From: Escherichia coli
GTDB lineage: Bacteria; Pseudomonadota; Gammaproteobacteria; Enterobacterales; Enterobacteriaceae
NCBI RefSeq assembly: GCF_013122565.1
Contig: NZ_CP053258.1
DNA length: 64,000 bases
Direction: 5' to 3' (one strand)
In this document: positions 5,797 to 38,028 of the stretch, one piece after another
Layout: each line of letters starts with the position of its first letter
Numbering within the stretch: the stretch's first letter is position 1
Notes under the pieces: generated by a model
Told to the model about the DNA's origin: nothing
Seen by the model: only the letters and a program-made list of their open reading frames with translations
The model's database searches: none
Made by a program: the position numbers and the translations under genes

Positions 5797-5801
5797 CGGT
5801 C

Positions 5802-6326: not shown

Positions 6327-6337
6327 TTTCACATCTT

Positions 6338-6364
6338 AGGGGCCAGTTAACTGGCCCTTTTTAC
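6338..6364 (+). terminator. Rho-independent terminator ending the lpf operon
   Basis: Stem ggggccagtt / aactggccc followed by TTTTT right after lpfE stop. Confidence 0.75.
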
Positions 6365-8360: not shown

Positions 8361-8437
<77 letters not shown>

Positions 8438-8516: not shown

Positions 8517-8612
8517 TTCGACTCGACGTAGGCCTGATAAGACGCGCCAGCGTCGCATCAGGCAAATGTGCCGGCCCATTGTCGGATGCAGCGTACCCGT
8601 CTTATCCGACCT
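8517..8612. repeat. REP/BIME-type palindromic units
   Basis: Palindromes gcctgataagacgcgccagcgtcgcatcaggc and gtcggatgcagcgtacccgtcttatccgac typical of enterobacterial REP elements. Confidence 0.7.
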
Positions 8613-12888: not shown

Positions 12889-13872
12889 ATGGCGTTATTA
12901 AATGTAGATAAATTATCGGTGCATTTCGGCGACGAAAGCGCACCGTTCCGCGCCGTAGACCGCATCAGCTACAGCGTAAAACAGGGCGAAGTGGTCGGAA
13001 TTGTGGGTGAGTCTGGCTCCGGTAAGTCGGTCAGTTCACTGGCTATTATGGGGCTGATTGATTATCCGGGCCGCGTAATGGCGGAAAAGCTGGAGTTTAA
13101 CGGTCAGGATTTACAGCGTATCTCAGAAAAAGAGCGCCGCAACCTGGTGGGTGCCGAAGTGGCGATGATCTTCCAGGACCCGATGACCAGCCTTAACCCG
13201 TGCTACACAGTGGGTTTCCAGATTATGGAAGCGATTAAGGTGCATCAGGGCGGTAATAAGAGCACTCGTCGTCAGCGGGCGATTGACCTGCTGAATCAGG
13301 TCGGTATTCCCGATCCGGCATCGCGTCTGGATGTTTACCCGCATCAGCTTTCCGGCGGCATGAGCCAGCGCGTGATGATCGCCATGGCGATTGCCTGTCG
13401 GCCAAAACTGCTGATTGCCGATGAACCAACCACTGCGCTGGACGTGACCATTCAGGCGCAAATCATTGAACTACTGCTGGAGCTACAGCAGAAAGAGAAC
13501 ATGGCGCTGGTGTTAATTACCCATGACCTGGCGCTGGTGGCGGAAGCGGCGCATAAAATTATCGTGATGTATGCCGGCCAGGTGGTGGAAACGGGCGATG
13601 CGCACGCCATCTTCCATGCGCCGCGTCACCCGTATACCCAGGCATTGCTGCGTGCGCTGCCGGAATTTGCTCAGGATAAAGAACGTCTGGCGTCGTTGCC
13701 AGGTGTTGTTCCCGGCAAGTATGACCGTCCGAACGGCTGCCTGCTTAACCCGCGCTGCCCCTATGCCACTGACAGATGCCGCGCTGAAGAACCGGCGTTG
13801 AATATGCTCGCTGACGGGCGTCAGTCCAAATGCCATTACCCACTTGATGATGCCGGGAGGCCGACACTATGA
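12889..13872 (+). CDS. dppD: Dipeptide ABC transporter ATP-binding protein
   Basis: 327 aa; Walker A GESGSGKS, signature LSGGMSQR, Walker B LIADEPT. Confidence 0.92.
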
Positions 13873-14873
13873 GTACGCATGAGGCCACCTCGCAACAACC
13901 GCTGTTGCAGGCTATCGACCTGAAAAAACATTATCCGGTGAAGAAAGGTTTGTTCGCACCGGAACGTCTGGTGAAGGCGCTGGATGGCGTTTCGTTTAAC
14001 CTTGAACGTGGCAAAACGCTGGCGGTAGTAGGTGAATCTGGCTGCGGTAAATCGACCCTCGGTCGGTTGCTGACGATGATTGAAACGCCCACCGGCGGCG
14101 AGCTGTATTACCAGGGGCAGGATCTGCTCAAGCACGATCCGCAGGCGCAGAAGTTGCGTCGGCAGAAAATCCAGATTGTCTTCCAGAACCCTTACGGTTC
14201 GCTGAATCCACGTAAAAAAGTCGGGCAAATTCTTGAGGAGCCGCTGCTGATTAATACCAGCTTAAGCAAAGAACAGCGTAGGGAAAAAGCCCTGTCGATG
14301 ATGGCGAAAGTCGGCCTGAAAACCGAGCACTATGACCGCTATCCGCATATGTTCTCCGGCGGTCAGCGTCAGCGTATCGCCATCGCCCGTGGTCTGATGC
14401 TCGACCCGGATGTGGTGATTGCCGATGAGCCGGTTTCCGCGCTGGACGTCTCAGTGCGTGCGCAGGTGCTCAACCTGATGATGGATTTGCAGCAGGAACT
14501 GGGGCTTTCTTATGTCTTTATCTCGCACGACCTGTCGGTTGTGGAGCACATTGCTGATGAAGTGATGGTGATGTACCTGGGCCGCTGCGTGGAGAAAGGG
14601 ACGAAGGACCAAATCTTCAATAACCCGCGCCACCCGTACACTCAGGCGCTGCTCTCCGCCACACCACGCCTGAACCCGGACGATCGTCGCGAACGCATCA
14701 AACTCACCGGTGAACTGCCAAGCCCGCTCAATCCACCGCCGGGTTGCGCCTTCAACGCCCGCTGTCGTCGGCGCTTCGGCCCCTGCACTCAGTTACAGCC
14801 ACCGCTGAAAGATTACGGCGGTCAACTGGTGGCCTGCTTTGCCGTTGATCAGGATGAAAATCCGCAGCGTTAA
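13869..14873 (+). CDS. dppF: Dipeptide ABC transporter ATP-binding protein
   Basis: 334 aa; Walker [10 protein letters not shown], signature FSGGQRQR; start overlaps dppD stop (ATGA). Confidence 0.92.
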
Positions 14874-16174: not shown

Positions 16175-16532
16175 AAAGTCCTGTCCAGAAAGAAGTCGGC
16201 CTCGCAAAAATGAATAAACCCAGTTTCTCTTGCGCAACAGGTGGAGAAGTCGAATACGCAGTATGTAAAAAATGAGGCAACAGATTCACTGGGGAGGTCG
16301 CGAGGAGGCGCAATTCTACAAAATTGCGCATTTCACTACCAGTCTGGAGTCAGCCCGGATATGAACTGCAACTATTGCAAATAAAGAAATTAAGCTGGAA
16401 GGCATCACGCAATGAGGAAGATTGTCGGGTGCTGAGGGTAAAAAGCAATCGTAAAATCAGCGGCAAGCCGGAAGGGTTCCGGTGAGGCGCAATGTTGCGG
16501 GGGCTTTATCCCTGGTGGCATTGGTTGCTGGA

Positions 16533-16605
16533 GAGAGAAAACCCCCGCACGTTGCAGGTATGCACCTGACAACACCACGGGGGCTAATCTTGACTCTAGA
16601 CCACT
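16533..16605 (-). ncRNA. rdl: Rdl-type antisense RNA (type I antitoxin), copy 1; ends approximate
   Basis: Minus-strand segment antisense to the ldr leader ending in a GC hairpin plus U-tract (ccccgcacg.. / gggggttttctctc); placement by analogy to K-12 rdlD. Confidence 0.45.
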
Positions 16606-16649
16606 CAAGAATAGCCGCGAAACGTTGTCATTACAACACAGGCGGCTAT

Positions 16650-16757
16650 ATGACGCTCGCAGAGCTGGGCATGGCCTTCTGGCATGATTTAGCGGCTCCG
16701 GTCATTGCTGGCATTCTTGCCAGTATGATCGTGAACTGGCTGAATAAGCGGAAGTAA
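16650..16757 (+). CDS. ldr: Ldr-family small toxic peptide (type I toxin), copy 1
   Basis: 35-aa peptide MTLAELGMAFWHDLAAPVIAGILASMIVNWLNKRK, matching remembered LdrD-type toxin. Confidence 0.8.
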   Translation: MTLAELGMAFWHDLAAPVIAGILASMIVNWLNKRK

Positions 16758-17015
16758 CGTGTCATGCGGGCGTCAGGCTGCCGTAATGGCAATTTGCGCC
16801 CGGACCAGGCCGCAGGGGTGAAACTCTGCGGCCTTTTTCGTAAGAAAAATGCAACGGTTGCAAGCGGATAATATTCTGCGGAATGCGCAGCACAGAGTGA
16901 AGACGTGACGGATTTCGGAACAGAAAAACAGTCGTAGAATCAGCGGCAAGCCGGAAAGGTTCCGGTGAGGCGCAATGTTGCGGGGGCTTTATCCCTGGTG
17001 GCATTGGTTGCTGGA

Positions 17016-17088
17016 GAGAGAAAACCCCCGCACGTTGCAGGTATGCACCTGACAACATTACGGGGGCTAATCTTGAACCCAAACAACT
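17016..17088 (-). ncRNA. rdl: Rdl-type antisense RNA, copy 2; ends approximate
   Basis: Same arrangement in second repeat unit. Confidence 0.45.
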
Positions 17089-17132
17089 CAAGAATAGCCG
17101 CGAAACGTTGTCATTACAACACAGGCGGCTAT

Positions 17133-17240
17133 ATGACGCTCGCAGAACTGGGCATGGCCTTCTGGCATGATTTAGCGGCTCCGGTCATTGCTGGCATTCT
17201 TGCCAGTATGATCGTGAACTGGCTGAACAAGCGGAAGTAA
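17133..17240 (+). CDS. ldr: Ldr-family small toxic peptide, copy 2
   Basis: Identical 35-aa peptide in second repeat unit. Confidence 0.8.
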   Translation: MTLAELGMAFWHDLAAPVIAGILASMIVNWLNKRK

Positions 17241-17498
17241 CGTGTCATGCGGGCGTCAGGCTGCCGTAATGGCAATTTGCGCCCGGACCAGGCCGCAGGG
17301 GTGAAACTCTGCGGCCTTTTTCGTAAGAAAAATGCAACGATTGCAAGCGGATAATATTCTGCGGAATGCGCAGCACAGAGTGAAGACGTGACGGATTCCG
17401 GAGCAGAAAAACAGTCGTAGAATCAGCGGCAAGCCGGAAAGGTTCCGGTGAGGCGCAATGTTGCGGGGGCTTAATCCCTGGTGGCATTGGTTGCTGGA

Positions 17499-17571
17499 GA
17501 GAGAAAACCCCCGCACGTTGCAGGTATGCACCTGACAACATCACGGGGGCCATTCTTGAACCTGAACAACT
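17499..17571 (-). ncRNA. rdl: Rdl-type antisense RNA, copy 3; ends approximate
   Basis: Same arrangement in third repeat unit. Confidence 0.45.
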
Positions 17572-17615
17572 CAAGAATAGCCGCGAAACGTTGTCATTAC
17601 AACACAGGCGGCTAT

Positions 17616-17723
17616 ATGACGCTCGCAGAACTGGGCATGGCCTTCTGGCACGATTTAGCGGCTCCGGTCATTGCTGGCATTCTTGCCAGTATGATTGTGA
17701 ACTGGCTGAATAAGCGGAAGTAA
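17616..17723 (+). CDS. ldr: Ldr-family small toxic peptide, copy 3
   Basis: Identical 35-aa peptide in third repeat unit. Confidence 0.8.
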   Translation: MTLAELGMAFWHDLAAPVIAGILASMIVNWLNKRK

Positions 17724-17809
17724 CGTGTCATGCGGGCGTCAGGCTGCCGTAATGGCAATTTGCGCCCGGATCAGGCCGCAGGGGGTAAACTCTGCGGCCT
17801 TTTTCGTTC

Positions 17810-19489
17810 TTACTGCGGGTAAGGCACCCAGTCGCCGCCGTTCAGGCGAACGTACGGTTTATCCTGGTATTGAATAACTACTGCATTTGAGTTCTCGGAG
17901 ACCGGTGCTGTTTGTGGCAACCCACTGGTGAGTTTTTTCCAGTCAACATTGTCTTCGGTGAAAATCTTGCCATCAAGAACGCGAACCACCAGATCGGAGA
18001 TAGCCAGGAAGCTGCTCGGTTGGTCGATAACAATCGGTGCCCCCTGATGTGGTGCCTTCATGCCGAAGAATTTCACCCCAACGGGGACGTCGGTGATAGA
18101 CGGGCTAGGGATATCACGTAGGCCAGATACCTGCATTCTGTCGCCCTTCAGCGCGCCGCCGTGTTCCGGCACCACGACCACCATCACTTTACGACCCGAT
18201 TTCTCCAGTTCAGTAAAGAAGGCGTCCAGTTCATCAAAGAATTTCTGCGCCCGCGCTTTGTAATCCGCTGTTTTGCTGACGCCCGGATAATGGTTGCCGT
18301 CATGCAGTGGAAGTGTGTTGTAGAACGTGGCACTACGGCTGTTTTTATCTTTTTCGGTAACGTCCAGCCAGCGGTTAAGCACGGCGGTATCGTCATAAAC
18401 CGGCGAACCATCAAAGCCCAGCAAAATAATCGGCAGATTTGTTTGATCCATCAATTCAGTCTGCATGCCGCCATTTTCGCGAACTTCTTTCAAAAAACCG
18501 CCGAACTGGCCGTTATGTCCCATCATCAGGTGCTGGGTAAAGCCCAGTTTCGACAGGTTATCAAATAGATAGCAGTCGTTATTTGCCGGTTGATACAGAT
18601 TAGTGTGCGAAGTCTGCCCGCAGCTGGCGCGCAGTAAACGGATCGCCGCCGGGCCACTGTAGGAGGTGGCGGAGTTAAAGTTCTTGAACTCAATATCGAA
18701 ATGCGACCACAGCGGATGCGACATCAACCCGGCGGCTTCTATATCCGACCAGGAAAGCGAACAGATATTAATCACCAGTAGTTCAAATGGCTGAGCATCA
18801 GCGGGCAGCGAAGACGGGAAGGTCGATTTACGTTTCGCCTCCGCGTTATAGAAATTATTCAGCCAGGCGTTAAGGTTCGCCGTTGTTGGCGGTGCAGTTT
18901 GTGCGGGCATATCACCCACTACCGGTGCGCCACCCGTCGCCGCAACGGTTGCCGCTGCGTTACCACCCGTCGTTGTTACAGTGGTCGTCGGTTGTCCGGC
19001 TGGCCACAAGGAGAAACTTGGTCCCGCCAGGGTAAGTACGTTCAGCCATAGCAGTATGGCAACCACAAAAACGGTAATGCGAATCCATTGTGACAGGAAT
19101 AACCAGGCCACTAATAAAACAAAAATGGCCCCAATCATCTGCCAGTTAATAAAGCGTGTGACAAGGTCGATTAAATAATCGGTACTGAACCCCGCCACCT
19201 GCGAACCCTGGCTCATTATGCTTTCCGGGCCAGGCAACCAGGTGTCATGCCAGAACAAAGCAAAGCCGATCGGCAGGGCAATCCAGTGGCGCAAGCGATG
19301 CAGGCTGTAACGCGGAATGGGCATCAGCAGAAACGCGGCAAACACCAAATTGAGGAGCGGATGGAAGTTAAGATATCCCGCCCACAACAGGCCGAACTTA
19401 ACCAGAAAATAGAAGTTCCAGCCGGAAAGGCCGCGCCAGTATTGCCAGAGGGAAGAAGGCATGGCGGTATTATGCGTAAATTGAGTCAT
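17810..19489 (-). CDS. bcsG: Cellulose biosynthesis protein BcsG (phosphoethanolamine transferase for pEtN-cellulose)
   Basis: 559 aa; N-terminal TM helices plus alkaline-phosphatase-like periplasmic domain; matches remembered BcsG (YhjU). Confidence 0.9.
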
Positions 19490-19677
19490 TTTTTGGTTGC
19501 CCTGGCTTTTTCCGTGCGGCGTAACGTCCCGGCCGGTTTAACATAACGAGGTTTAGCAAAGAACAAACGTAAGGTGTCGCGAATGCGTCGCAAAGAGTGC
19601 CGCGCCAGATAGCCCAGCGGGAAAAATATCAGTGCGCAAACGACAATAATTTCAATGATATCGCTGATGGTCATCAT
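19486..19677 (-). CDS. bcsF: Cellulose biosynthesis small membrane protein BcsF
   Basis: 63 aa single-TM protein; start/stop overlaps with bcsE and bcsG. Confidence 0.85.
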
Positions 19678-21245
19678 GATGAGCGCTCCACAGCATCATC
19701 TAACAGTCGCATGGGTTCTGGTATTCGTCGCCAGTGGCGACCATCGTGCTCGGCATTGATGACCGGTTTAGAACTTTGCGTTAAAGGCAGCGGCATGCCC
19801 CATTGTTCTGGGGCAAGCAGGCGCATCTGCACCAGCTCGGCACTGATTTGATCATCTTCAAACCAGACCATACGGTTTGAGAAAATGTCGCCAGTAGGCA
19901 ATGGGAAAATATGATTCAACGCGGTATCCAGATCGTTAATCCGACAGAATGAGAGAAACAGCACCAGCCGATTACCGCCAATGGTCATGATATCGCCGGT
20001 ACGGTTAGGGCGACATAGCGTCAGGGCTTGCTCAACGCGGATACCCGGTACCGGACGTAGGGCAACCAGAACGCCTTTACCGTGGGCTGGCAGGAGAGGG
20101 TTATTCATCATGTTGTTGACGGCATTACAGAACACATCCCACTTCTGGAAACCACGCAGTTTGAGCGGCTGGGTCATTGACAGCAAGGTAGTGATATCTT
20201 CCGGCACATAGCGACTAAACTTCTGCCCTTGCACGCTTTCGATCATCGTCAGACAGCGGGAGAGTGGCGCATTCCACGGGATAACCATATTTGCACCGCA
20301 GGCTAATAACAAACGTTCATCGGTGGCGCGCAGGCTAGCGGTATTTTCCCGTACGAGGATTTTCATCGCACTACCGCGCTGGCGACGCAGAGTATGAATG
20401 CTGCGGGCCAGTGGCTCGATTTGTGCATTTTGCTGTAAAGAAAAGACTACCGTCGCCGCCTGAGCGGTACGGGCTTCATTGAACAGGACTTCGTTATTGT
20501 TGAACAGTTGCCAGTGTTCCGATAGCGGCGGCGCACCTTCCAGTACAGCAACATTACTCAGAATGCGTTTTTCGTCGCTGCGTGGTTGGATCTCCGCCTC
20601 TTCGCTTTGAACTAATGTCCAGATACCATTTTGTTGCTGAACGCTAAGCTGCTGACGGGCGCTGACCCCTTTTTCGTTGCACCAGAAGGCAATATCCAGC
20701 AAATGTTGGTCGCCCTGAAAACGCAAACTGGCAAGACCAAAAAGTGAACGGTATTCCTCAAGCAACAATGAAAATTGTTTATCGTTATTATTTCCGGGAT
20801 TAATTACCAAAAGCGAACAATGGTTTAACCTGCTCCATTTATTCAATTTATCCAACCATGAGCGAAGCCGCTCGGCAGGAATGTTTTGCCATGCGTTATT
20901 TGCGCAAACAAGAATAAAAAGGTAATTATGGGGATCAATAGAACACTGCAAATCACGGGCCAAATAGTATAGACCTTTTTCATGATTTAGCATCGAAAAT
21001 AATTTAATTTTTTCCGGCCCTTGAGAATCATCTAATTGAAAGATTTTCTCCGGATCGCTGTCCATGCTAATGACCGCGACGTGTGCGGTTTCAGCCTGGG
21101 ATGCAATTGTTTGATTCGCCAGACTGATAGCATCTTCATGGCGATCGACGTTAAACCACCAGACGCCGCCTGCTGGCATATGTCGCAGCTCATCCCATAA
21201 TGATGAGATACCGATAGAGAATACAGGGTCCACAATGTCCCTCAT
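19674..21245 (-). CDS. bcsE: Cellulose biosynthesis protein BcsE (c-di-GMP-binding)
   Basis: 523 aa; matches remembered BcsE (YhjS); first gene of divergent bcsEFG operon. Confidence 0.9.
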
Positions 21246-21517
21246 GTCACCATTTTGTCTGATTATCAGTTTACTAGCGAAAGCTAAGAAATAAACCTAC
21301 CATTGAAATTAAAACTTATCAGATTTAGCATGTGAATCAATTTAGCAGGTCATAAGACGTGTGATTTTAGTCTTTTCGTTTTTAACTTTTTCTGTTGCGT
21401 AACGGAAAGTCAAAAAGTGAGCAAATTCCCGTCTCGCCGTAAACAATAAACCGGCGAAATGCTCACGGTTAGAATTGTCTTATGAATGGTGCAGTTATTT
21501 CATAGGGATCAAGCAAA

Positions 21518-21706
21518 ATGAATAACAATGAACCAGATAATCTGCCTGATCCCGCGATAGGCTATATCTTCCAGAATGATATTTTGGCGTTAAAGCAGGC
21601 ATTTTCACTGCCTGATATTGATTATGCCGATATTTCCCAACGCGAACAGTTGGCCGCGGCATTAAAACGCTGGCCGTTGCTGGCAGAGTTTGCGCAACAA
21701 AAGTAG
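21518..21706 (+). CDS. bcsR: Cellulose biosynthesis regulator protein BcsR
   Basis: 62 aa; matches remembered YhjR; first gene of bcsRQABZC. Confidence 0.85.
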   Translation: MNNNEPDNLPDPAIGYIFQNDILALKQAFSLPDIDYADISQREQLAAALKRWPLLAEFAQQK

Positions 21707-21717: not shown

Positions 21718-22470
21718 ATGGCCGTACTGGGATTGCAGGGGGTGCGGGGAGGCGTGGGGACAACAACCATCACCGCCGCATTAGCCTGGTCATTACAAAT
21801 GTTGGGAGAAAATGTCCTGGTGGTCGATGCCTGCCCGGACAATTTGTTGCGCCTGTCATTTAATGTTGATTTTATCCACCGTCAGGGCTGGGCCAGAGCT
21901 ATGCTGGATGGTCAGGACTGGCGTGACGCTGGGTTGCGCTACACCTCGCAGCTCGATTTGCTGCCTTTTGGTCAGTTATCCATTGAAGAACAAGAAAATC
22001 CACATCACTGGCAAACCCGGTTGAGCGATATTTGCTCCGGCTTACAGCAACTAAAATCCAGCGGGCGTTACCAGTGGATTTTAATCGACTTACCGCGTGA
22101 TGCCTCGCAGATAACCCACCAGCTGCTGAGTTTGTGCGATCACTCGCTGGCAATCGTCAATGTGGATGCCAACTGCCATATCCGACTGCATCAGCAAGCA
22201 CTGCCGGATGGCGCACATATTTTGATTAATGACTTCTGTATTGGCAGTCAGGTTCAGGACGATATTTACCAGCTTTGGTTGCAAAGCCAGCGCCGATTAC
22301 TGCCGATGCTCATTCATCGTGATGAAGCGATGGCTGAATGCCTGGCGGCTAAGCAACCAGTCGGTGAATACCGCAGTGATTCGCTGGCGGCTGAAGAGAT
22401 ACTGACGCTGGCGAACTGGTGCCTGTTGAACTATTCCGGGCTGAAAACGCCAGTCGGGAGTAAATCATGA
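21718..22470 (+). CDS. bcsQ: Cellulose synthase operon protein BcsQ (MinD/ParA-like), intact
   Basis: 250 aa uninterrupted; codon 6 reads CAG (Gln) in atggccgtactgggattgCAGggg, where K-12 carries a TAG stop. Confidence 0.9.
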   Translation: MAVLGLQGVRGGVGTTTITAALAWSLQMLGENVLVVDACPDNLLRLSFNVDFIHRQGWARAMLDGQDWRDAGLRYTSQLDLLPFGQLSIEEQENPHHWQTRLSDICSGLQQLKSSGRYQWILIDLPRDASQITHQLLSLCDHSLAIVNVDANCHIRLHQQALPDGAHILINDFCIGSQVQDDIYQLWLQSQRRLLPMLIHRDEAMAECLAAKQPVGEYRSDSLAAEEILTLANWCLLNYSGLKTPVGSKS

Positions 22471-25085
22471 GTATCCTGACCCGGTGGTTGCTTATCCCGC
22501 CGGTCAACGCGCGGCTTATCGGGCGTTATCGCGATTATCGTCGTCACGGTGCGTCGGCTTTCAGCGCGACGCTCGGCTGTTTCTGGATGATCCTGGCCTG
22601 GATTTTTATTCCGCTGGAGCACCCGCGCTGGCAGCGTATTCGCGCAGAACATAAAAACCTGTATCCGCATATCAACGCCTCGCGTCCGCGTCCGCTGGAC
22701 CCGGTCCGTTATCTCATTCAAACATGCTGGTTACTGATCGGTGCATCGCGCAAAGAAACGCCGAAACCGCGCAGGCGGGCATTTTCAGGTCTGCAGAATA
22801 TTCGTGGACGTTACCATCAATGGATGAACGAGCTGCCTGAGCGCGTTAGCCATAAAACACAGCATCTTGATGAGAAAAAAGAGCTCGGCCATTTGAGTGC
22901 CGGGGCGCGGCGGTTGATCCTCGGTATCATCGTCACCTTCTCGCTGATTCTGGCGTTAATCTGCGTTACTCAGCCGTTTAACCCGCTGGCGCAGTTTATC
23001 TTCCTGATGCTGCTGTGGGGGGTAGCGCTGATCGTACGGCGGATGCCGGGGCGCTTCTCGGCGCTAATGTTGATTGTGCTGTCGCTGACCGTTTCTTGCC
23101 GTTATATCTGGTGGCGCTACACCTCTACGCTGAACTGGGATGATCCGGTTAGCCTGGTGTGCGGGCTTATTCTGCTCTTCGCCGAAACGTACGCGTGGAT
23201 TGTGCTGGTGCTCGGCTACTTCCAGGTAGTATGGCCGCTGAATCGTCAGCCGGTGCCATTGCCGAAAGATATGTCGCTGTGGCCGTCGGTGGATATCTTT
23301 GTCCCGACTTACAACGAAGATCTCAACGTGGTGAAAAATACCATTTACGCCTCGCTGGGTATCGACTGGCCGAAAGACAAGCTGAACATCTGGATCCTTG
23401 ATGACGGCGGCAGGGAAGAGTTTCGCCAGTTTGCGCAAAACGTGGGGGTGAAATATATCGCCCGTACTACTCATGAACATGCGAAAGCGGGCAACATCAA
23501 CAATGCGCTGAAATATGCCAAAGGCGAGTTCGTGTCGATTTTCGACTGCGACCACGTACCAACGCGATCGTTCCTGCAAATGACCATGGGCTGGTTCCTG
23601 AAAGAAAAACAACTGGCGATGATGCAGACGCCGCACCACTTCTTCTCGCCGGACCCGTTTGAACGCAACCTGGGGCGTTTTCGTAAAACACCGAACGAAG
23701 GCACGCTGTTCTATGGTTTGGTGCAGGATGGCAACGATATGTGGGACGCCACTTTCTTCTGCGGTTCCTGTGCGGTGATTCGCCGTAAGCCGCTGGATGA
23801 AATTGGCGGCATTGCTGTCGAAACCGTGACTGAAGATGCGCATACTTCTTTGCGTTTGCACCGTCGTGGCTATACCTCCGCGTATATGCGTATTCCGCAG
23901 GCGGCGGGGCTGGCGACCGAAAGTCTGTCGGCGCATATCGGTCAGCGTATTCGCTGGGCGCGCGGGATGGTACAAATCTTCCGTCTCGATAACCCGCTTA
24001 CCGGTAAAGGGCTGAAGTTTGCTCAGCGGCTATGTTACGTCAACGCCATGTTCCACTTCTTGTCGGGCATTCCACGGCTGATCTTCCTGACTGCGCCGCT
24101 GGCGTTCCTGCTGCTTCATGCCTACATCATCTACGCGCCTGCATTGATGATCGCCCTGTTTGTGCTGCCGCATATGATTCATGCCAGCCTGACTAACTCG
24201 AAGATCCAGGGCAAATATCGCCACTCGTTCTGGAGTGAAATCTACGAAACGGTTCTGGCGTGGTATATCGCACCACCGACGCTGGTGGCGCTGATTAACC
24301 CGCACAAAGGCAAATTTAACGTCACCGCCAAAGGTGGACTGGTGGAAGAAGAGTACGTCGACTGGGTGATCTCGCGGCCCTACATCTTCCTTGTTCTGCT
24401 CAACCTGGTGGGCGTTGCGGTAGGCATCTGGCGCTACTTCTATGGCCCGCCAACCGAGATGCTCACCGTGGTCGTCAGTATGGTGTGGGTATTCTACAAC
24501 CTGATTGTTCTTGGCGGCGCAGTTGCGGTATCGGTAGAAAGCAAACAGGTACGCCGATCGCACCGCGTGGAGATGACGATGCCCGCGGCAATTGCCCGCG
24601 AAGATGGTCACCTCTTCTCGTGTACCGTTCAGGATTTCTCCGACGGTGGTTTGGGGATCAAGATCAACGGTCAGGCGCAGATTCTGGAAGGGCAGAAAGT
24701 GAATCTGTTGCTTAAACGTGGTCAGCAGGAATACGTCTTCCCGACCCAGGTGGCGCGCGTGATGGGTAATGAAGTTGGGCTGAAATTAATGCCGCTCACC
24801 ACCCAGCAACATATCGATTTTGTGCAGTGTACGTTTGCCCGTGCGGATACATGGGCGCTCTGGCAGGACAGCTATCCGGAAGATAAGCCGCTGGAAAGTC
24901 TGCTGGATATTCTGAAGCTCGGCTTCCGTGGCTACCGCCATCTGGCGGAGTTTGCGCCTTCTTCGGTGAAGGGCATATTCCGTGTGCTGACTTCTCTGGT
25001 TTCCTGGGTTGTATCGTTTATTCCGCGCCGCCCGGAGCGGAGCGAAACGGCACAACCATCGGATCAGGCTTTGGCTCAACAATGA
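22467..25085 (+). CDS. bcsA: Cellulose synthase catalytic subunit BcsA
   Basis: 872 aa; GT2 motifs (DDG, DCD, QTP-type QxxRW region) and C-terminal PilZ region; start overlaps bcsQ stop. Confidence 0.93.
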   Translation: MSILTRWLLIPPVNARLIGRYRDYRRHGASAFSATLGCFWMILAWIFIPLEHPRWQRIRAEHKNLYPHINASRPRPLDPVRYLIQTCWLLIGASRKETPKPRRRAFSGLQNIRGRYHQWMNELPERVSHKTQHLDEKKELGHLSAGARRLILGIIVTFSLILALICVTQPFNPLAQFIFLMLLWGVALIVRRMPGRFSALMLIVLSLTVSCRYIWWRYTSTLNWDDPVSLVCGLILLFAETYAWIVLVLGYFQVVWPLNRQPVPLPKDMSLWPSVDIFVPTYNEDLNVVKNTIYASLGIDWPKDKLNIWILDDGGREEFRQFAQNVGVKYIARTTHEHAKAGNINNALKYAKGEFVSIFDCDHVPTRSFLQMTMGWFLKEKQLAMMQTPHHFFSPDPFERNLGRFRKTPNEGTLFYGLVQDGNDMWDATFFCGSCAVIRRKPLDEIGGIAVETVTEDAHTSLRLHRRGYTSAYMRIPQAAGLATESLSAHIGQRIRWARGMVQIFRLDNPLTGKGLKFAQRLCYVNAMFHFLSGIPRLIFLTAPLAFLLLHAYIIYAPALMIALFVLPHMIHASLTNSKIQGKYRHSFWSEIYETVLAWYIAPPTLVALINPHKGKFNVTAKGGLVEEEYVDWVISRPYIFLVLLNLVGVAVGIWRYFYGPPTEMLTVVVSMVWVFYNLIVLGGAVAVSVESKQVRRSHRVEMTMPAAIAREDGHLFSCTVQDFSDGGLGIKINGQAQILEGQKVNLLLKRGQQEYVFPTQVARVMGNEVGLKLMPLTTQQHIDFVQCTFARADTWALWQDSYPEDKPLESLLDILKLGFRGYRHLAEFAPSSVKGIFRVLTSLVSWVVSFIPRRPERSETAQPSDQALAQQ

Positions 25086-25095
25086 TGATAACGCG

Positions 25096-27435
25096 ATGAA
25101 AAGAAAACTATTCTGGATTTGTGCAGTGGCTATGGGGATGAGTGCGTTCCCCTCTTTCATGACGCAGGCGACGCCAGCAACGCAACCACTGATCAATGCT
25201 GAGCCAGCTGTAGCCGCCCAGACGGAACAGAATCCGCAGGTTGGGCAAGTGATGCCGGGCGTGCAGGGCGCTGATGCGCCAGTCGTGGCGCAGAACGGTC
25301 CTTCGCGTGATGTGAAGCTGACCTTTGCGCAAATTGCGCCGCCGCCGGGAAGCATGGTGCTACGTGGCATTAACCCGAACGGCAGCATTGAGTTTGGTAT
25401 GCGCAGCGATGAAGTGGTGACGAAGGCGATGCTCAACCTCGAATACACGCCATCGCCATCGTTACTGCCTGTCCAGTCGCAGTTAAAGGTTTATCTCAAT
25501 GATGAACTGATGGGCGTGTTGCCAGTGACCAAAGAACAGTTGGGTAAAAAAACGCTGGCGCAAATGCCCATTAACCCACTGTTTATTACCGACTTCAACC
25601 GTGTGCGGCTGGAGTTTGTCGGCCATTATCAGGACGTGTGCGAAAACCCGGCCAGCACCACGCTTTGGCTGGATGTTGGGCGGAGCAGTGGACTGGATTT
25701 GACCTATCAGACCCTGAATGTGAAGAATGACCTGTCACACTTCCCGGTACCATTCTTTGATCCGCGTGATAACCGTACTAACACCTTGCCGATGGTCTTT
25801 GCGGGTGCGCCGGATGTCGGGCTGCAACAAGCATCTGCCATTGTCGCCTCGTGGTTTGGTTCGCGTTCTGGCTGGCGTGGGCAGAACTTCCCGGTGCTCT
25901 ATAACCAGCTGCCGGATCGCAATGCCATTGTTTTTGCCACTAATGACAAACGCCCGGACTTCCTGCGCGATCATCCGGCGGTAAAAGCCCCGGTGATTGA
26001 GATGATCAACCATCCGCAGAATCCTTATGTCAAACTGCTGGTGGTGTTTGGTCGTGACGACAAAGACCTGTTGCAGGCAGCGAAAGGTATCGCTCAGGGT
26101 AACATTCTGTTCCGTGGTGAAAGCGTGGTAGTGAATGAAGTGAAACCGCTGCTACCGCGTAAGCCGTACGATGCGCCGAACTGGGTGCGTACCGATCGTC
26201 CGGTCACCTTTGGTGAACTGAAAACCTATGAAGAACAGTTACAATCCAGCGGTCTTGAGCCGGCAGCGATTAACGTTTCGCTAAACCTGCCACCGGATCT
26301 CTACCTGATGCGCAGTACCGGCATTGATATGGATATCAACTATCGCTACACCATGCCGCCGGTGAAAGACAGTTCGCGGATGGATATCAGCCTGAATAAC
26401 CAGTTCCTGCAATCTTTCAACCTGAGCAGCAAACAGGAGGCGAACCGCCTGCTGCTGCGGATTCCGGTATTACAAGGTTTGCTGGATGGCAAAACGGATG
26501 TCTCTATTCCGGCGCTGAAACTGGGCGCGACCAACCAGCTGCGCTTCGACTTTGAGTATATGAACCCGATGCCGGGCGGTTCGGTGGATAACTGTATTAC
26601 CTTCCAGCCGGTGCAGAATCATGTGGTGATTGGTGACGATTCCACCATCGACTTCTCGAAGTATTACCACTTCATCCCGATGCCGGATCTACGCGCCTTT
26701 GCTAACGCGGGCTTCCCGTTCAGCCGGATGGCGGATCTGTCGCAAACCATCACCGTGATGCCGAAAACGCCTAACGAAGCACAGATGGAAACGTTGCTGA
26801 ATACTGTTGGTTTTATCGGCGCACAGACGGGCTTCCCGGCGATTAATCTGACGGTGACCGATGATGGCAGCACCATTCAGGGCAAAGATGCCGACATCAT
26901 GATCATCGGTGGTATTCCGGACAAATTAAAAGACGATAAGCAAATCGACCTGTTGGTGCAGGCGACCGAAAGCTGGGTGAAAACACCGATGCGCCAGACC
27001 CCGTTCCCCGGCATTGTGCCGGACGAGAGCGATCGCGCGGCAGAAACCCAGTCAACGCTGACCTCTTCCGGTGCGATGGCGGCGGTGATTGGCTTCCAGT
27101 CGCCGTATAACGACCAGCGCAGCGTGATTGCGCTGCTGGCAGATAGCCCACGCGGTTATGAAATGCTTAACGATGCGGTGAACGATAGCGGCAAACGCGC
27201 CACCATGTTCGGTTCGGTCGCGGTGATCCGCGAGTCCGGTATCAACAGCCTACGTGTTGGCGACGTTTATTACGTAGGTCATCTGCCGTGGTTCGAGCGC
27301 TTGTGGTATGCGCTGGCAAACCATCCGATTCTGCTGGCGGTGCTGGCGGCTATCAGTGTGATATTGCTGGCATGGGTACTGTGGCGTCTGCTGCGTATTA
27401 TTAGTCGTCGTCGTCTTAACCCGGATAACGAGTAA
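25096..27435 (+). CDS. bcsB: Cellulose synthase periplasmic subunit BcsB
   Basis: 779 aa from ATG at 25096 (MKRKLFWICAVAMG...), signal peptide, C-terminal TM anchor; ORF-track start 25009 is an extension overlapping bcsA. Confidence 0.92.
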   Translation: MKRKLFWICAVAMGMSAFPSFMTQATPATQPLINAEPAVAAQTEQNPQVGQVMPGVQGADAPVVAQNGPSRDVKLTFAQIAPPPGSMVLRGINPNGSIEFGMRSDEVVTKAMLNLEYTPSPSLLPVQSQLKVYLNDELMGVLPVTKEQLGKKTLAQMPINPLFITDFNRVRLEFVGHYQDVCENPASTTLWLDVGRSSGLDLTYQTLNVKNDLSHFPVPFFDPRDNRTNTLPMVFAGAPDVGLQQASAIVASWFGSRSGWRGQNFPVLYNQLPDRNAIVFATNDKRPDFLRDHPAVKAPVIEMINHPQNPYVKLLVVFGRDDKDLLQAAKGIAQGNILFRGESVVVNEVKPLLPRKPYDAPNWVRTDRPVTFGELKTYEEQLQSSGLEPAAINVSLNLPPDLYLMRSTGIDMDINYRYTMPPVKDSSRMDISLNNQFLQSFNLSSKQEANRLLLRIPVLQGLLDGKTDVSIPALKLGATNQLRFDFEYMNPMPGGSVDNCITFQPVQNHVVIGDDSTIDFSKYYHFIPMPDLRAFANAGFPFSRMADLSQTITVMPKTPNEAQMETLLNTVGFIGAQTGFPAINLTVTDDGSTIQGKDADIMIIGGIPDKLKDDKQIDLLVQATESWVKTPMRQTPFPGIVPDESDRAAETQSTLTSSGAMAAVIGFQSPYNDQRSVIALLADSPRGYEMLNDAVNDSGKRATMFGSVAVIRESGINSLRVGDVYYVGHLPWFERLWYALANHPILLAVLAAISVILLAWVLWRLLRIISRRRLNPDNE

Positions 27436-27441
27436 TTGAAG

Positions 27442-28548
27442 ATGAATGTGTTGCGTAGTGGACTCGTGACGATGCTGCTGCTGGCTGCCTTTAGTGTTCA
27501 GGCAGCCTGTACCTGGCCTGCCTGGGAGCAGTTTAAAAAGGATTACATCAGTCAGGAAGGGCGCGTCATCGACCCCAGCGACGCGCGCAAAATCACCACC
27601 TCCGAAGGGCAAAGTTACGGTATGTTCTTTGCCCTGGCGGCTAACGACCGTGCAGCTTTCGATAATATTCTCGACTGGACGCAGAACAATCTCGCTCAGG
27701 GTTCTTTAAAAGAACGTTTGCCCGCCTGGCTGTGGGGCAAGAAAGAGAACAGTAAGTGGGAAGTGCTGGACAGCAATTCGGCCTCCGATGGTGATGTCTG
27801 GATGGCCTGGTCGTTGCTGGAGGCGGGGCGTTTGTGGAAAGAGCAGCGTTATACCGACATCGGCAGCGCGTTGCTAAAACGTATTGCGCGGGAGGAAGTG
27901 GTGACGGTGCCTGGGCTGGGTTCCATGTTGTTACCGGGCAAAGTGGGTTTTGCTGAGGATAACAGCTGGCGTTTTAACCCCAGCTACCTGCCGCCGACGC
28001 TGGCGCAGTATTTCACCCGCTTTGGCGCGCCGTGGACTACGCTGCGCGAAACCAATCAACGTTTATTGCTGGAAACCGCCCCGAAAGGCTTTTCGCCAGA
28101 CTGGGTGCGCTATGAGAAAGACAAAGGCTGGCAGCTAAAAGCCGAAAAAACATTGATCAGCAGCTACGACGCTATCCGCGTTTACATGTGGGTAGGCATG
28201 ATGCCTGACAGCGATCCGCAGAAAGCGCGGATGCTCAACCGGTTTAAACCGATGGCGACATTCACTGAGAAAAACGGTTATCCGCCGGAAAAAGTGGATG
28301 TGGCTACGGGGAAAGCGCAGGGTAAAGGACCGGTCGGTTTTTCTGCCGCCATGCTGCCCTTTTTACAAAACCGCGATGCGCAGGCCGTTCAGCGCCAGCG
28401 CGTGGCCGATAACTTTCCCGGCAGCGATGCCTATTACAACTATGTGCTGACCCTGTTTGGACAAGGCTGGGATCAACACCGTTTCCGCTTCTCGACAAAA
28501 GGTGAGTTATTACCTGACTGGGGCCAGGAATGCGCAAATTCACACTAA
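27442..28548 (+). CDS. bcsZ: Periplasmic endo-1,4-beta-glucanase (GH8)
   Basis: 368 aa from ATG at 27442 with signal peptide; matches remembered BcsZ. Confidence 0.9.
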
Positions 28549-31500
28549 ACATATTCACGCTTTCCCTCGGTCTGGCCGTCATGCCGATGGTCGAGGCAGC
28601 ACCAACCGCTCAGCAACAGTTGCTGGAGCAAGTTCGGTTAGGCGAAGCGACCCATCGTGAAGATCTGGTGCAACAGTCGTTATATCGGCTGGAACTTATT
28701 GATCCGAATAACCCGGACGTCGTTGCCGCCCGTTTCCGTTCTTTGTTACGTCAGGGCGATATTGATGGCGCGCAAAAACAGCTCGATCGGCTGTCGCAGT
28801 TAGCGCCGAGTTCAAATGCGTATAAATCGTCGCGGACTACGATGCTGCTTTCCACGCCAGATGGTCGTCAGGCACTGCAACAGGCAAGATTGCAGGCGAC
28901 GACTGGTCATGCAGAAGAAGCTGTGGCGAGTTACAACAAACTGTTCAACGGTGCGCCGCCGGAAGGTGACATTGCCGTCGAGTACTGGAGTACGGTGGCG
29001 AAAATTCCGGCTCGCCGTGGCGAAGCGATTAATCAGCTAAAACGCATTAATGCGGATACGCCGGGCAATACGGGCTTGCAAAACAATCTGGCGCTATTGC
29101 TGTTTAGTAGCGATCGCCGTGACGAAGGTTTTGCCGTCCTGGAACAGATGGCGAAATCGAACGCCGGGCGCGAAGGGGCCTCTAAAATCTGGTACGGGCA
29201 GATTAAAGACATGCCCGTCAGTGATGCCAGTGTGTCGGCGCTGAAAAAATATCTTTCGATCTTTAGTGATGGCGATAGCGTGGCGGCTGCGCAATCGCAA
29301 CTGGCAGAACAGCAAAAACAGCTGGCCGATCCTGCTTTCCGCGCTCGTGCGCAAGGTTTAGCGGCGGTGGACTCTGGTATGGCGGGTAAAGCCATTCCCG
29401 AACTACAACAGGCGGTGCGGGCGAACCCGAAAGACAGTGAGGCTCTGGGGGCGCTGGGCCAGGCGTATTCTCAGAAAGGCGATCGCGCCAATGCAGTGGC
29501 GAATCTGGAAAAAGCCCTCGCACTGGATCCGCACAGCAGCAACAACGACAAATGGAACAGTCTGCTGAAAGTAAACCGCTACTGGCTGGCGATCCAGCAG
29601 GGCGATGCTGCGCTGAAAGCCAATAATCCTGACCGGGCAGAACGCCTGTTCCAGCAGGCGCGTAATGTCGATAACACCGACAGTTATGCAGTGCTGGGGC
29701 TGGGCGATGTGGCGATGGCGCGAAAAGATTATCCCGCCGCCGAACGTTATTATCAGCAGACCTTGCGTATGGACAGCGGCAACACTAACGCCGTGCGCGG
29801 GCTGGCAAATATTTACCGCCAGCAATCGCCAGAAAAAGCTGCAGCGTTTATCGCCTCGCTCTCTGCCAGTCAGCGGCGTAGCATTGATGATATCGAACGC
29901 AGCCTGCAAAACGACCGTCTGGCACAGCAGGCAGAGGCACTGGAAAACCAGGGCAAATGGGCGCAGGCGGCAGCACTTCAGCGGCAACGACTGGCGCTGG
30001 ACCCCGGCAGTGTATGGATTACTTACCGACTTTCGCAGGATCTCTGGCAGGCCGGACAACGCAGCCAGGCTGATACGTTAATGCGCAATCTGGCGCAGCA
30101 GAAGCCGAACGACCCGGAGCAGGTTTACGCTTACGGGCTGTACCTCTCTGGTCATGACCAGGACAGAGCGGCGCTGGCGCATATCAACAGCCTGCCGCGT
30201 GCGCAGTGGAGCAGCAATATTCAGGAGCTGGTTAATCGACTGCAAAGCGATCAGGTGCTGGAAACCGCTAATCGCCTGCGAGAAAGCGGCAAAGCAGCTG
30301 AAGCGGAAGCGATGCTGCGTCAGCAACCACCTTCCACGCGTATTGACCTCACGCTGGCTGACTGGGCGCAGCAGCGACGTGATTACACCGCCGCCCGCGC
30401 TGCATATCAGAATGTCCTGACGCGGGAGCCAACTAACGCCGATGCCATTCTGGGGCTGACGGAAGTGGATATTGCTGCCGGTGACACAGCGGCGGCACGT
30501 AGCCAGCTGGCGAAACTGCCCGCTACCGATAACGCCTCGCTGAACACACAGCGGCGCGTGGCGCTGGCGCAGGCGCAGCTTGGCGATACCGCAGCGGCGC
30601 AGCAGACGTTTAATAAGTTGATCCCGCAGGCAAAATCTCAGCCACCGTCGATGGAAAGCGCGATGGTGCTGCGCGACGGTGCGAAGTTTGAAGCGCAGGC
30701 GGGCGATCCAAAGCAGGCGCTGGAAACCTACAAAGACGCCATGGTCGCATCCGGTGTGACTACGACGCGTCCGCAGGATAACGACACCTTTACCCGACTG
30801 ACCCGTAACGACGAGAAAGATGACTGGCTGAAACGCGGCGTGCGCAGCGATGCGGCGGACCTCTATCGCCAGCAGGATCTTAACGTCACCCTTGAGCATG
30901 ATTACTGGGGTTCGAGCGGCACCGGTGGTTACTCCGATCTGAAAGCCCACACTACCATGTTGCAGGTGGATGCGCCGTATTCTGACGGGCGGATGTTCTT
31001 TCGCAGTGATTTCGTCAATATGAATGTCGGCAGTTTCTCCACTAATGCCGATGGCAAATGGAATGACAACTGGGGCACCTGTACATTACAGGATTGTAGC
31101 GGCAACCGCAGCCAGTCGGATTCCGGTGCCAGCGTGGCGGTTGGCTGGCGCAACGACACCTGGAGCTGGGATATCGGCACCACGCCGATGGGCTTCAACG
31201 TGGTGGATGTGGTCGGCGGCATCAGTTACAGCGATGATATCGGGCCGCTGGGTTACACCGTTAACGCCCACCGTCGGCCCATCTCCAGTTCTTTGCTGGC
31301 CTTTGGCGGGCAAAAAGACTCCCCGAGCAATACCGGGAAAAAATGGGGCGGCGTGCGTGCCGACGGCGTGGGGCTAAGCCTGAGCTACGATAAAGGTGAA
31401 GCAAACGGCGTCTGGGCATCGCTTAGTGGCGACCAGTTAACCGGTAAAAATGTCGAAGATAACTGGCGTGTGCGCTGGATGACGGGCTATTACTATAAGG

Positions 31501-32003
31501 TCATCAACCAGAACAATCGCCGCGTCACAATCGGCCTGAACAACATGATCTGGCATTACGACAAAGACCTGAGTGGCTACTCACTAGGTCAGGGCGGTTA
31601 CTACAGCCCGCAGGAATACCTGTCGTTTGCCATACCGGTGATGTGGCGGGAGCGCACGGAAAACTGGTCGTGGGAGCTTGGGGCGTCTGGCTCGTGGTCG
31701 CATTCACGCACCAAAACCATGCCGCGTTATCCGCTGATGAATCTGATCCCGACCGACTGGCAGGAAGAAGCTGCGCGGCAATCCAACGATGGCGGCAGCA
31801 GTCAGGGCTTCGGCTACACGGCGCGGGCATTACTTGAACGACGTGTTACTTCCAACTGGTTTGTCGGCACGGCAATTGATATCCAGCAGGCGAAAGATTA
31901 CGCACCCAGCCATTTCCTGCTCTACGTACGTTATTCCGCCGCCGGATGGCAGGGTGACATGGATTTACCGCCGCAGCCGCTGATACCTTACGCCGACTGG
32001 TAA
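28530..32003 (+). CDS. bcsC: Cellulose synthase outer-membrane/TPR subunit BcsC
   Basis: 1157 aa; signal peptide, long TPR-rich region, C-terminal beta-barrel-like segment. Confidence 0.93.
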
Positions 32004-32084: not shown

Positions 32085-34073
32085 TTGCGCGTAAGTCGCT
32101 CGTTAACAATCAAGCAGATGGCAATGGTGGCAGCCGTTGTCCTGGTGTTCGTTTTTATTTTTTGCACCGTTTTGCTGTTCCATCTGGTCCAGCAGAATCG
32201 CTATAACACGGCTACGCAACTGGAAAGCATTGCTCGCTCTGTCCGCGAACCCTTATCTTCAGCTATTTTGAAAGGCGATATTCCCGAAGCGGAAGCTATT
32301 CTTGCCAGCATTAAACCGGCTGGCGTGGTCAGCCGTGCCGATGTAGTGCTGCCTAACCAGTTCCAGGCGCTGCGTAAAAGATTTATTCCAGAGCGTCCGG
32401 TGCCGGTAATGGTTACTCGCCTGTTTGAGCTACCGGTTCAAATCTCGCTGGGCGTCTACTCGCTCGAACGTCCGGCAAATCCGCAGCCAATTGCCTATCT
32501 GGTGCTACAGGCGGATTCCTTCCGTATGTATAAGTTCGTGATGAGCACCCTCTCAACGTTAGTGACCATTTACTTACTTTTGTCGCTTATCCTGACCGTC
32601 GCCATCAGCTGGTGTATTAATCGACTGATTTTACATCCGTTACGCAATATTGCTCGCGAACTTAACGCCATCCCTGCCCAGGAGCTTGTTGGTCACCAAC
32701 TGGCATTACCACGTCTGCATCAGGATGATGAAATCGGTATGTTGGTGCGCAGTTACAACCTTAACCAGCAATTGCTGCAGCGCCATTATGAAGAACAGAA
32801 CGAAAATGCGATGCGCTTCCCGGTGTCGGATTTGCCGAACAAAGCCTTGCTGATGGAGATGCTGGAGCAGGTTGTCGCGCGTAAACAAACCACCGCGCTG
32901 ATGATCATCACCTGTGAAACCCTGCGTGATACTGCGGGCGTGCTGAAAGAGGCGCAACGAGAAATTCTGCTGCTGACGCTGGTGGAAAAACTCAAATCGG
33001 TACTGTCGCCACGTATGATCCTCGCGCAGATTAGCGGTTATGACTTTGCTGTCATTGCCAATGGTGTACAGGAACCGTGGCACGCAATCACCTTAGGTCA
33101 GCAAGTGCTCACTATCATGAGCGAGCGCCTGCCGATTGAACGTATTCAACTCCGTCCGCACTGTAGCATTGGCGTGGCGATGTTCTACGGCGATCTCACC
33201 GCCGAACAGCTTTACAGTCGCGCTATTTCTGCGGCATTTACCGCTCGCCATAAAGGCAAGAATCAGATTCAGTTCTTTGATCCGCAGCAGATGGAAGCCG
33301 CCCAGAAGCGGTTGACGGAAGAGAGCGATATCCTTAATGCACTGGAAAATCATCAGTTTGCTATTTGGTTACAGCCACAGGTCGAGATGACCAGCGGTAA
33401 ACTGGTCAGTGCGGAAGTGTTACTGCGTATCCAGCAACCGGATGGCAGTTGGGACCTGCCGGATGGCTTAATCGATCGCATTGAGTGCTGTGGGCTGATG
33501 GTTACCGTCGGTCACTGGGTGCTGGAAGAGTCCTGTCGATTGCTTGCAGCCTGGCAAGAGCGCGGCATTATGCTGCCCTTGTCGGTAAACCTCTCTGCGC
33601 TGCAACTGATGCACCCAAATATGGTGGCGGATATGCTGGAACTGTTAACCCGCTATCGCATTCAGCCGGGAACACTGATTCTGGAAGTGACAGAAAGCCG
33701 ACGTATTGACGACCCTCATGCTGCGGTGGCAATCCTCCGTCCGCTGCGCAATGCCGGAGTTCGGGTGGCGCTGGATGATTTCGGCATGGGCTACGCAGGG
33801 CTGCGTCAGCTGCAGCATATGAAATCGTTGCCAATCGACGTACTGAAAATCGACAAAATGTTTGTTGAAGGCTTGCCGGAAGATAGCAGCATGATTGCTG
33901 CAATTATCATGCTGGCGCAGAGCCTGAACTTACAAATGATTGCCGAAGGCGTGGAGACTGAAGCACAACGCGACTGGCTGGCAAAAGCGGGCGTTGGTAT
34001 TGCCCAGGGCTTCCTTTTTGCTCGCCCACTCCCTATTGAAATCTTCGAAGAGAGTTACCTGGAAGAAAAGTAG
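32085..34073 (+). CDS. pdeK: c-di-GMP phosphodiesterase PdeK (HAMP-GGDEF-EAL)
   Basis: 662 aa from TTG start as in ORF track; N-terminal TM/HAMP, degenerate GGDEF, EAL domain with LILEVTE motif; matches remembered YhjK. Confidence 0.85.
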
Positions 34074-37259: not shown

Positions 37260-37264
37260 TAAAT

Positions 37265-37296
37265 AACCCGGCAGCGTTTCTTCTGCGCTGCCGGGA
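37265..37296 (+). terminator. Hairpin downstream of yhjJ (possible terminator)
   Basis: Stem cccggcagcg / cgctgccggg right after yhjJ stop; weak U-tract. Confidence 0.5.
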
Positions 37297-37457
37297 TTAA
37301 CGGTAATGAATAAGTTGCCGTGATATACCCGCAGAGATTTTTCCAGGCACGGCGGTAGCGTGCAGATAACCATTCATTATTAGAATAAACTTACGGCTGT
37401 GTGAGTTTAATTATTTATTGGCTGAATAAATTGCCAGGAAATAGATGGTGTTAAATA

Positions 37458-37718
37458 ATGGCCTATCATATAGAAATATGGGAAATTGAAGAAACTGATA
37501 AAGTAGTAAAATATGAATTTGGACCTATATCTTCTGACTATTGTAGATCTGATTACGGCGAGTTCGTGATAGATAAAAGAACGGGGGAGATGACATTAGT
37601 CAGACTGGTTAAAAACGATTCGGCTAATAAATTTTATTTGCGAGCGAGTTTTAAGATTCTGACCTGTTGGCGAAAGGGCTATTTGCCAAAAACAAGGAAT
37701 GAGCTTCTTAATAAGTAA
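37458..37718 (+). CDS. Hypothetical small protein (island ORF 1)
   Basis: 86-aa ORF in AT-rich DNA, first of five co-oriented small ORFs; weak SD; no recognised family. Confidence 0.4.
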   Translation: MAYHIEIWEIEETDKVVKYEFGPISSDYCRSDYGEFVIDKRTGEMTLVRLVKNDSANKFYLRASFKILTCWRKGYLPKTRNELLNK

Positions 37719-37731
37719 CTTTGCATAATAA

Positions 37732-38028
37732 GTGAATTTTCCCATTTTTGGGGGGCAGTCGTTGATTCTTACACAGTTTATGTTATGGGTGCAGAAAAAC
37801 ACTGGGCATAATATTAAAAGCAATGCCAATACCTTATCAACCAGCATAGTTATTGATTTTGATAATGATATCCATATTGCCAGATTTACAGGTTGGGATG
37901 ATTTAAGTTGTATGTCAGAAGTTATATGCGTTGAATCGGGTGATTATAAATTAAATCAGCGAAATGAATTCCATACTTATGATTCGCTAAGGATAATATT
38001 TGATGCTTTAATAGAAAGCATACAGTAA
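37732..38028 (+). CDS. Hypothetical small protein (island ORF 2)
   Basis: 98-aa ORF starting 13 nt after ORF 1 stop (GTG in track; internal ATG possible); no recognised family. Confidence 0.35.
   Translation: MNFPIFGGQSLILTQFMLWVQKNTGHNIKSNANTLSTSIVIDFDNDIHIARFTGWDDLSCMSEVICVESGDYKLNQRNEFHTYDSLRIIFDALIESIQ

Follow-up and report, generated by a model that had tools for sequence, protein, structure and literature searches.

An intact nine-gene bcs locus with an uninterrupted bcsQ and a rare BcsQ allele in Escherichia coli

Organization and integrity of the bcs locus

The sequence analyzed here (the window) is a stretch of 64,000 nucleotides of the Escherichia coli contig NZ_CP053258.1 (assembly GCF_013122565.1). 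It carries a bcs locus in which bcsR and bcsQ lie upstream of bcsA on the plus strand, bcsB, bcsZ and bcsC are all encoded downstream of bcsA (order bcsA-B-Z-C, 22467-32003), and bcsEFG runs divergently on the minus strand. When every MG1655 gene from rcdB to eptB was compared with the window by BLAST, bcsG, bcsF, bcsE, bcsR, bcsQ, bcsA, bcsB, bcsZ and bcsC gave end-to-end gapless matches with 97.9-100% identity. From the bcsG stop codon to the yhjJ stop codon, the 19,450 bases differ from MG1655 by 264 substitutions, mostly transitions, and contain no indels. All nine Bcs proteins matched NCBIfam equivalog and Pfam models over their full length, with scores far above the curated cut-offs. An initial annotation, made by reading the sequence, had described a complete bcsRQABZC/bcsEFG arrangement of nine full-length genes. 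This description was borne out by the equivalog matches and by the genes themselves, which have the same lengths as in MG1655, proper start and stop codons and no internal stops. The same annotation had worried that a frameshift or stop in bcsA, bcsB or bcsC might have been missed by eye; BLAST and translation against MG1655 revealed none.

On the minus strand, bcsG (17810..19489) encodes a phosphoethanolamine (pEtN) transferase of 559 aa that matches TIGR03368 with 817 bits and retains Ser278, and its gapless alignment to MG1655 shows 98.9% identity. The adjacent bcsF (19486..19677, minus strand, 63 aa) is identical to MG1655 at the nucleotide level (100%) and scores 116 bits against TIGR03493. 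The c-di-GMP-binding regulator gene bcsE (19674..21245, minus strand, 523 aa) aligns without gaps at 98.7% identity, matches NF011619 over its full length with 1188 bits, and encodes both I-site motifs (R306ATD and R415TGD). The earlier assignment of bcsEFG as the module for pEtN modification is supported by the literature (PMC7397504, PMC11470070). The divergent intergenic region between bcsE and bcsR (21246..21517, 272 bp), which contains the promoters, has the same length as in MG1655 and differs from it by six substitutions, with neither an indel nor an IS. In a comparison of 10 strains, the substitutions at 21353, 21481, 21487 and 21493 in this promoter and 5'-UTR segment were private to this strain. 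Three of the four cluster in a 13-base stretch located 25-37 nt ahead of the bcsR start.

On the plus strand, bcsR (yhjR; 21518..21706, 62 aa) matches NF040717 with 75.8 bits and differs from its K-12 counterpart by T8N and V23L. The cellulose synthase gene bcsA (22467..25085, 872 aa) matches NF008558 over residues 1-872 with 1794 bits, as well as PF00535 and PF07238. BcsA thus contains a GT2 catalytic domain and, at its C terminus, a PilZ domain bearing the RxxxR motif for c-di-GMP. All 37 nucleotide differences between bcsA and its MG1655 counterpart are silent, leaving the proteins 100% identical; strong purifying selection on BcsA has also been reported (PMC5944007). Downstream, bcsB (25096..27435, plus strand, 779 aa) is stop-free and gapless at 97.9% identity (NF008325, 1387 bits). 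The GH8 endoglucanase gene bcsZ (27442..28548, plus strand, 368 aa) is gapless at 99.3% (NF008305, 595 bits; PF01270), and bcsC (28530..32003, plus strand, 1157 aa), encoding TPR repeats and an outer-membrane channel, is gapless at 98.2% and matches NF008520 over its full length with 2197 bits; its C-terminal barrel matches PF05420. Beside the operon lies an intact pdeK (yhjK/hmsP; 32085..34073, plus strand), gapless at 99.1% identity to MG1655, whose c-di-GMP phosphodiesterase product is a local c-di-GMP sink for cellulose synthase (PMC7397504).

We also examined the functional residues named in two studies of the Bcs system (PMC7840130, PMC11470070). Every such residue that we examined is present, except R174 of BcsQ, which is replaced by Cys. 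In BcsA these are FFCGS430, TED455, QRIRW493, R367, R792 and the PilZ motif RRSHR696-700; in BcsR, D21 and the plug residues I22, L25, F29, L31, I34 and Y36; and in BcsG, S278.

Several other features of the window differ from MG1655. Relative to that genome, a 5.5-kb insertion occupies 37260-42788 between yhjJ and kdgK. Among the products of this island are a homologue of the TriTu immunity protein (37732-38028), a protein of 701 aa that matches TPR models weakly (39460-41565, minus strand) and a DUF3142 protein (41489-42694, minus strand); its four remaining small ORFs have no family match in Pfam or NCBIfam. It is covered to at least 80% in only 2 of 5,426 complete E. coli genomes, at ~89% identity, and in some E. 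coli this site holds partial versions with 89-93% identity, the shorter ones at ~93%. The initial annotation held that the bcs genes give context for this adjacent island, a view that our data do not support. Between bcsC and the island lie 5.2 kb that hold pdeK, dctA and yhjJ. No functional link to cellulose emerged: the only domains found with Pfam and NCBIfam were DUF3142, weak TPR and TriTu, and a literature search on DUF3142 returned nothing relevant.

A second insertion relative to MG1655, of 5.8 kb (554-6339), lies between yhjX and eptB and is a chaperone-usher fimbrial operon, with a fimbrial subunit (881-1408), a PapD-like chaperone (1492-2178), an usher (2202-4733) and two further fimbrial-domain proteins (4714-5796 and 5793-6326). 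It presumably sits where O157:H7 carries its lpf (long polar fimbriae) island. Between yhjV and bcsG, the ldrD/rdlD type I toxin-antitoxin module is present as a tandem array of three copies (16441-17807), compared with one at this site in MG1655 and two in WL297; the array has a 483-bp period with a 96% match between copies, and yields three Rfam rdlD matches and three ldrD ORFs. At the Rfam gathering score, the window also contains the sRNA GadY (58196-58309), naRNA4 (8531-8611) and a tRNA (8361-8434) at the position of proK (tRNA-Pro) in MG1655, all of which are expected in this chromosomal region.

The bcsQ reading frame and its frequency in E. coli

The bcsQ gene (21718..22470, plus strand) encodes a SIMIBI/MinD-like ATPase of 250 aa. 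Translation of the window ORF gave an open ATG...TGA frame of 250 codons, free of internal stops, in agreement with the earlier claim that the frame is uninterrupted. The protein scores 535.9 bits against the NCBIfam equivalog NF007460 (cut-off 399), covering residues 1-249 of 250, and 379 bits against PF06564, and it matches the BcsQ structure in PDB entry 6YBU with an E value of 1.7e-165. The deviant Walker A motif (G-x-R-G-G-V-G-T-T) is present, residues 8-17 being GVRGGVGTTT.

The codon on which K-12 and this strain differ had been misassigned. The gene begins ATG GCC GTA CTG GGA TTG CAG in the window and ATG GCC GTA CTG GGA TAG CAG in MG1655, so that codon 6 (21733-21735, plus strand) is TTG (Leu) and the CAG given as codon 6 by the initial annotation is codon 7. 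This slip leaves the conclusion intact, as the bcsQ frame is still open. The statement that K-12 carries TAG at codon 6 was correct: the stop is seen in the MG1655 sequence, where bcsQ (b3534) is annotated as a pseudogene, and the lesion has been described as TTG/TAG, 17 T>A (PMC5944007). The pairwise alignment with MG1655 bcsQ that had been proposed as a check gave genes of equal length, TTG facing TAG at codon 6; base by base, both are 753 nt long, with 16 substitutions and no indels. The K-12 laboratory null allele (TAG, nt 17 T>A) is therefore absent from the window. Restoring codon 6 from TAG to TTG in W3110 produced AR3110, which is thereby cellulose-proficient (PMC7397504, PMC5014196).

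The K-12 stop had also been described as polar on bcsA. The bcsQ stop codon overlaps the bcsA start codon (ATGA). Translation of the two genes could thus be coupled, in which case a nonsense codon early in bcsQ could be polar. Polarity on bcsA is, however, only one of two alternative explanations that have been offered (PMC5944007). BcsQ is itself essential for cellulose secretion.

To place the allele in the species, codon 6 was surveyed in 5,426 complete E. coli genomes using 33-mers chosen so that each 28-base seed within them covers nt 17. The TTG allele was found in at least 4,679 of them (3,592 + 1,087), codon 9 being silently changed from GTG to GTT in the latter 1,087, and the TAG allele in 349. 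Among 60 TAG genomes listed, 59 had laboratory or K-12-type names (for example MG1655, DH5alpha, C600 and J53), and the sole other name was WCHEC035053S1G0. All eight natural genomes that we sampled carry TTG at codon 6. An intact bcsQ is thus the species norm and is not unusual.

The integrity of all nine bcs genes is somewhat more informative than that of bcsQ alone, although it is still the ancestral and common state. Of eight arbitrarily chosen natural E. coli genomes, three carry bcs pseudogenes: 1504D004 has a stop at bcsQ codon 193, in CB7286 bcsA is frameshifted and bcsC is interrupted by a stop at codon 399, and CE0011b has stops at bcsQ codon 68, bcsA codon 387 and bcsZ codon 341. 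Cellulose loss is reported to be frequent and convergent in E. coli: of the 76 commonest STs, 74 include strains with bcs loss-of-function mutations, and for some clones an association between bcs inactivation and higher virulence has been described (PMC10881479). The pseudogenes in the three genomes fit this published pattern. With its intact bcs genes, the strain studied here has not taken this common evolutionary route of cellulose inactivation.

A rare BcsQ allele on a long branch

Compared with K-12, BcsQ carries L6 (a stop in K-12), T53I, Q96H, A114S, R174C, A222S and A249K. Codon 174 (22237..22239, plus strand) is TGT (Cys), where other enterobacteria have Arg. Four of the substitutions (T53I, Q96H, R174C and A222S) are lineage-private: none of them occurs in the bcsQ genes of nine other E. 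coli or in 11 other Escherichia BcsQ proteins. The exact BcsQ protein was found on only two contigs in a collection of 15 billion proteins. The alleles of BcsQ, BcsC, BcsE, BcsG and BcsR are likewise rare there (two to three contigs), whereas the exact BcsB protein occurs on at least 1000 contigs.

The strain itself is a member of a deep-branching E. coli lineage that is poorly sampled, and it sits on a long branch. Among the 5,426 complete RefSeq genomes, the nearest is only ~98.4-98.7% identical over the bcs region, and the neighbouring 14 kb reaches at most 98.6% identity to its nearest relative, which places the whole window on the long branch. Such a branch explains the many "private" substitutions. 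To explain the cluster of private changes, we considered import of the bcsR-bcsQ segment alone from an unsampled lineage; an event specific to bcs is unsupported, since the neighbouring 14 kb is divergent as well. A sequencing or assembly artefact as the origin of the uninterrupted frame or the unusual BcsQ residues was rejected because an independent short-read assembly (Logan, SRR11451224) is identical to the window over 4,753 bases and because GenBank holds the exact Bcs proteins (QJU26459-QJU26467, from a 4.82-Mb contig). Elsewhere in the window, dppF (13869-14873) is 94.2% identical to MG1655, with 58 substitutions, compared with 96.7-98.7% for neighbouring genes, and this divergence probably reflects import by recombination.

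The substitutions raise the question of whether the locus, though its frames are intact, is attenuated or altered. In this reading, R174C chiefly, possibly Q96H, and the promoter-region changes would lower or otherwise alter cellulose output, and would represent a missense or regulatory route to the attenuation that is common in E. coli; we consider it improbable. In its favor, of 124 Escherichia, Salmonella and Citrobacter BcsQ sequences, 123 have Arg at position 174 and 122 have Gln at position 96, so that both residues are almost invariant in this group, whereas positions 53, 114, 222 and 249 vary among the same homologues. Moreover, R174 belongs with R201 and E203 to a set of conserved residues that likely prevent nucleotide release and stabilize the dimer (PMC7840130). 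In this vestibule or dimer-floor cluster, R201 and E203 are kept and position 174 is Cys. However, R174 and Q96 had to be rejected as family-wide invariants. Among 98 distant representatives, with 27-63% identity, the residue at 174 is Asp in 42, Asn in 16, Ser in nine, Gln in seven, Arg in four and Cys in two, and position 96 is variable or gapped; neither residue is therefore indispensable for the fold or for ATPase function. No BcsQ residue that is conserved across the family is altered, A222S shifts the protein towards the family consensus, and the NF007460 score is only 7 bits below that of a consensus E. coli BcsQ. Also against attenuation, the residues of the ATP sandwich dimer are all intact (T16, T17, N152, R156, N171 and the R10-D150 pair), and these were shown by mutagenesis to matter (PMC7840130); C39, D41 and R219 are present as well.

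Substitution rates bear on the same question from both sides. The Nei-Gojobori dN/dS of bcsQ is 0.26 against K-12 and 0.29 against O55:H7, 5-8 fold above the 0.03-0.06 between other strains. Where dS could be measured, the other bcs genes give values of 0-0.12 against K-12 and O55:H7, with bcsE reaching up to 0.15 against UTI89, and the ratio for bcsR is undefined because it has no synonymous differences. Private changes show a similar tendency: their non-synonymous to synonymous ratio is 4:3 for bcsQ and 10:39 for the other eight genes together (Fisher p = 0.058), although the counts behind this contrast are small. The frequent convergent loss of cellulose in the species, seen also in three of our eight sampled genomes, lends attenuation some prior weight. 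Nevertheless, the bcsQ ratio remains well under 1, and the other eight genes are under strongly purifying selection, with no amino-acid change in BcsA, which makes a dead pathway hard to reconcile with the data.

We regard the rare BcsQ allele with R174C as the only mildly unusual feature of the locus. A further proposal is that the R174C protein, evolving faster in a deep-branching lineage, alters ATP retention or the coupling of BcsRQ to BcsA or BcsE and so tunes cellulose up or down without pseudogenization; this is speculative and we think it distinctly unlikely. Whatever its effect, the R174C/Q96H allele could serve as a natural variant for probing the role of R174/R201/E203 in BcsRQ.

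Cellulose production and comparison with known bcs loci

Overall, we interpret the locus as an ordinary, ancestral E. coli type II Bcs locus with nine intact genes and TTG at bcsQ codon 6, which permits synthesis of pEtN-cellulose, and we assign this reading a probability of roughly 0.9. Judged by its sequence, the locus is very probably competent. By analogy with the published system, BcsA-BcsB would polymerize UDP-glucose upon binding of c-di-GMP to the BcsA PilZ domain. An ATP-bound BcsR2Q2 complex would be essential for assembly and activation and, together with dimeric BcsE, would form a cytosolic vestibule around BcsA; BcsF is expected to recruit BcsE. BcsG would transfer phosphoethanolamine via Ser278, and BcsZ and BcsC would perform the periplasmic and outer-membrane steps.

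The initial annotation concluded from the intact genes that the strain is predicted to make cellulose. Nine intact bcs genes with a wild-type bcsQ do make the genotype permissive for pEtN-cellulose synthesis, and this part of the prediction stands. However, an intact locus is necessary and not sufficient, and the genes for the DgcC/CsgD/RpoS cascade that activates the system lie beyond the window. Activation of the synthase needs c-di-GMP made by DgcC under CsgD/RpoS control (PMC7397504, PMC5014196), and csgD, dgcC and rpoS are absent from the window, which runs from yhjX to mdtE. A fully functional locus could thus reside in a strain that is cellulose-negative under standard conditions through regulation outside the window, by way of the csgD promoter, rpoS, dgcC or high phosphodiesterase (PDE). 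There is precedent in BL21 and H10407, in which all bcs genes are present and open, yet no calcofluor signal was detectable under the conditions of that study (PMC5944007). The PDE genes within the window, pdeK and pdeH, are nevertheless ordinary alleles, and we judge such regulatory silence unlikely here. Actual output depends on these externally encoded regulators and on how active the unusual BcsQ allele is. If the regulators allow, the strain could form biofilms of pEtN-cellulose and curli.

An intact wild-type bcs locus is normal for this well-characterized system, and its presence here matters little beyond strain annotation. Comparison with known loci places it accordingly. Naturally attenuated loci, such as those of ST95 and many other STs (PMC10881479) and of 1504D004, CB7286 and CE0011b, occupy the same chromosomal context and are the same locus, but they carry nonsense or frameshift mutations in bcsQ, bcsA, bcsZ, bcsC, bcsE or bcsG, whereas the window carries none. 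K-12 MG1655 and W3110 share with the window gapless collinearity from bcsG to yhjJ and identical gene lengths; they differ in that K-12 has TAG in bcsQ and is cellulose-negative, whereas the window has TTG. A further close parallel is the type II Bcs system of strains 1094 and AR3110 (PMC5944007, PMC7397504, PMC11470070). In contrast to these strains, the window shows ~1.3-1.5% nucleotide divergence, its BcsQ carries T53I, Q96H, A114S, R174C and A222S, and its BcsR, BcsE, BcsG and BcsC have a few conservative changes. Like them, it has the nine genes, identically ordered and oriented, and TTG at bcsQ codon 6, together with the PilZ RxxxR and QxxRW motifs, the two RxxD motifs of BcsE, S278 of BcsG and the ATP-site residues of BcsQ, and its BcsA protein is identical to that of K-12 and AR3110.
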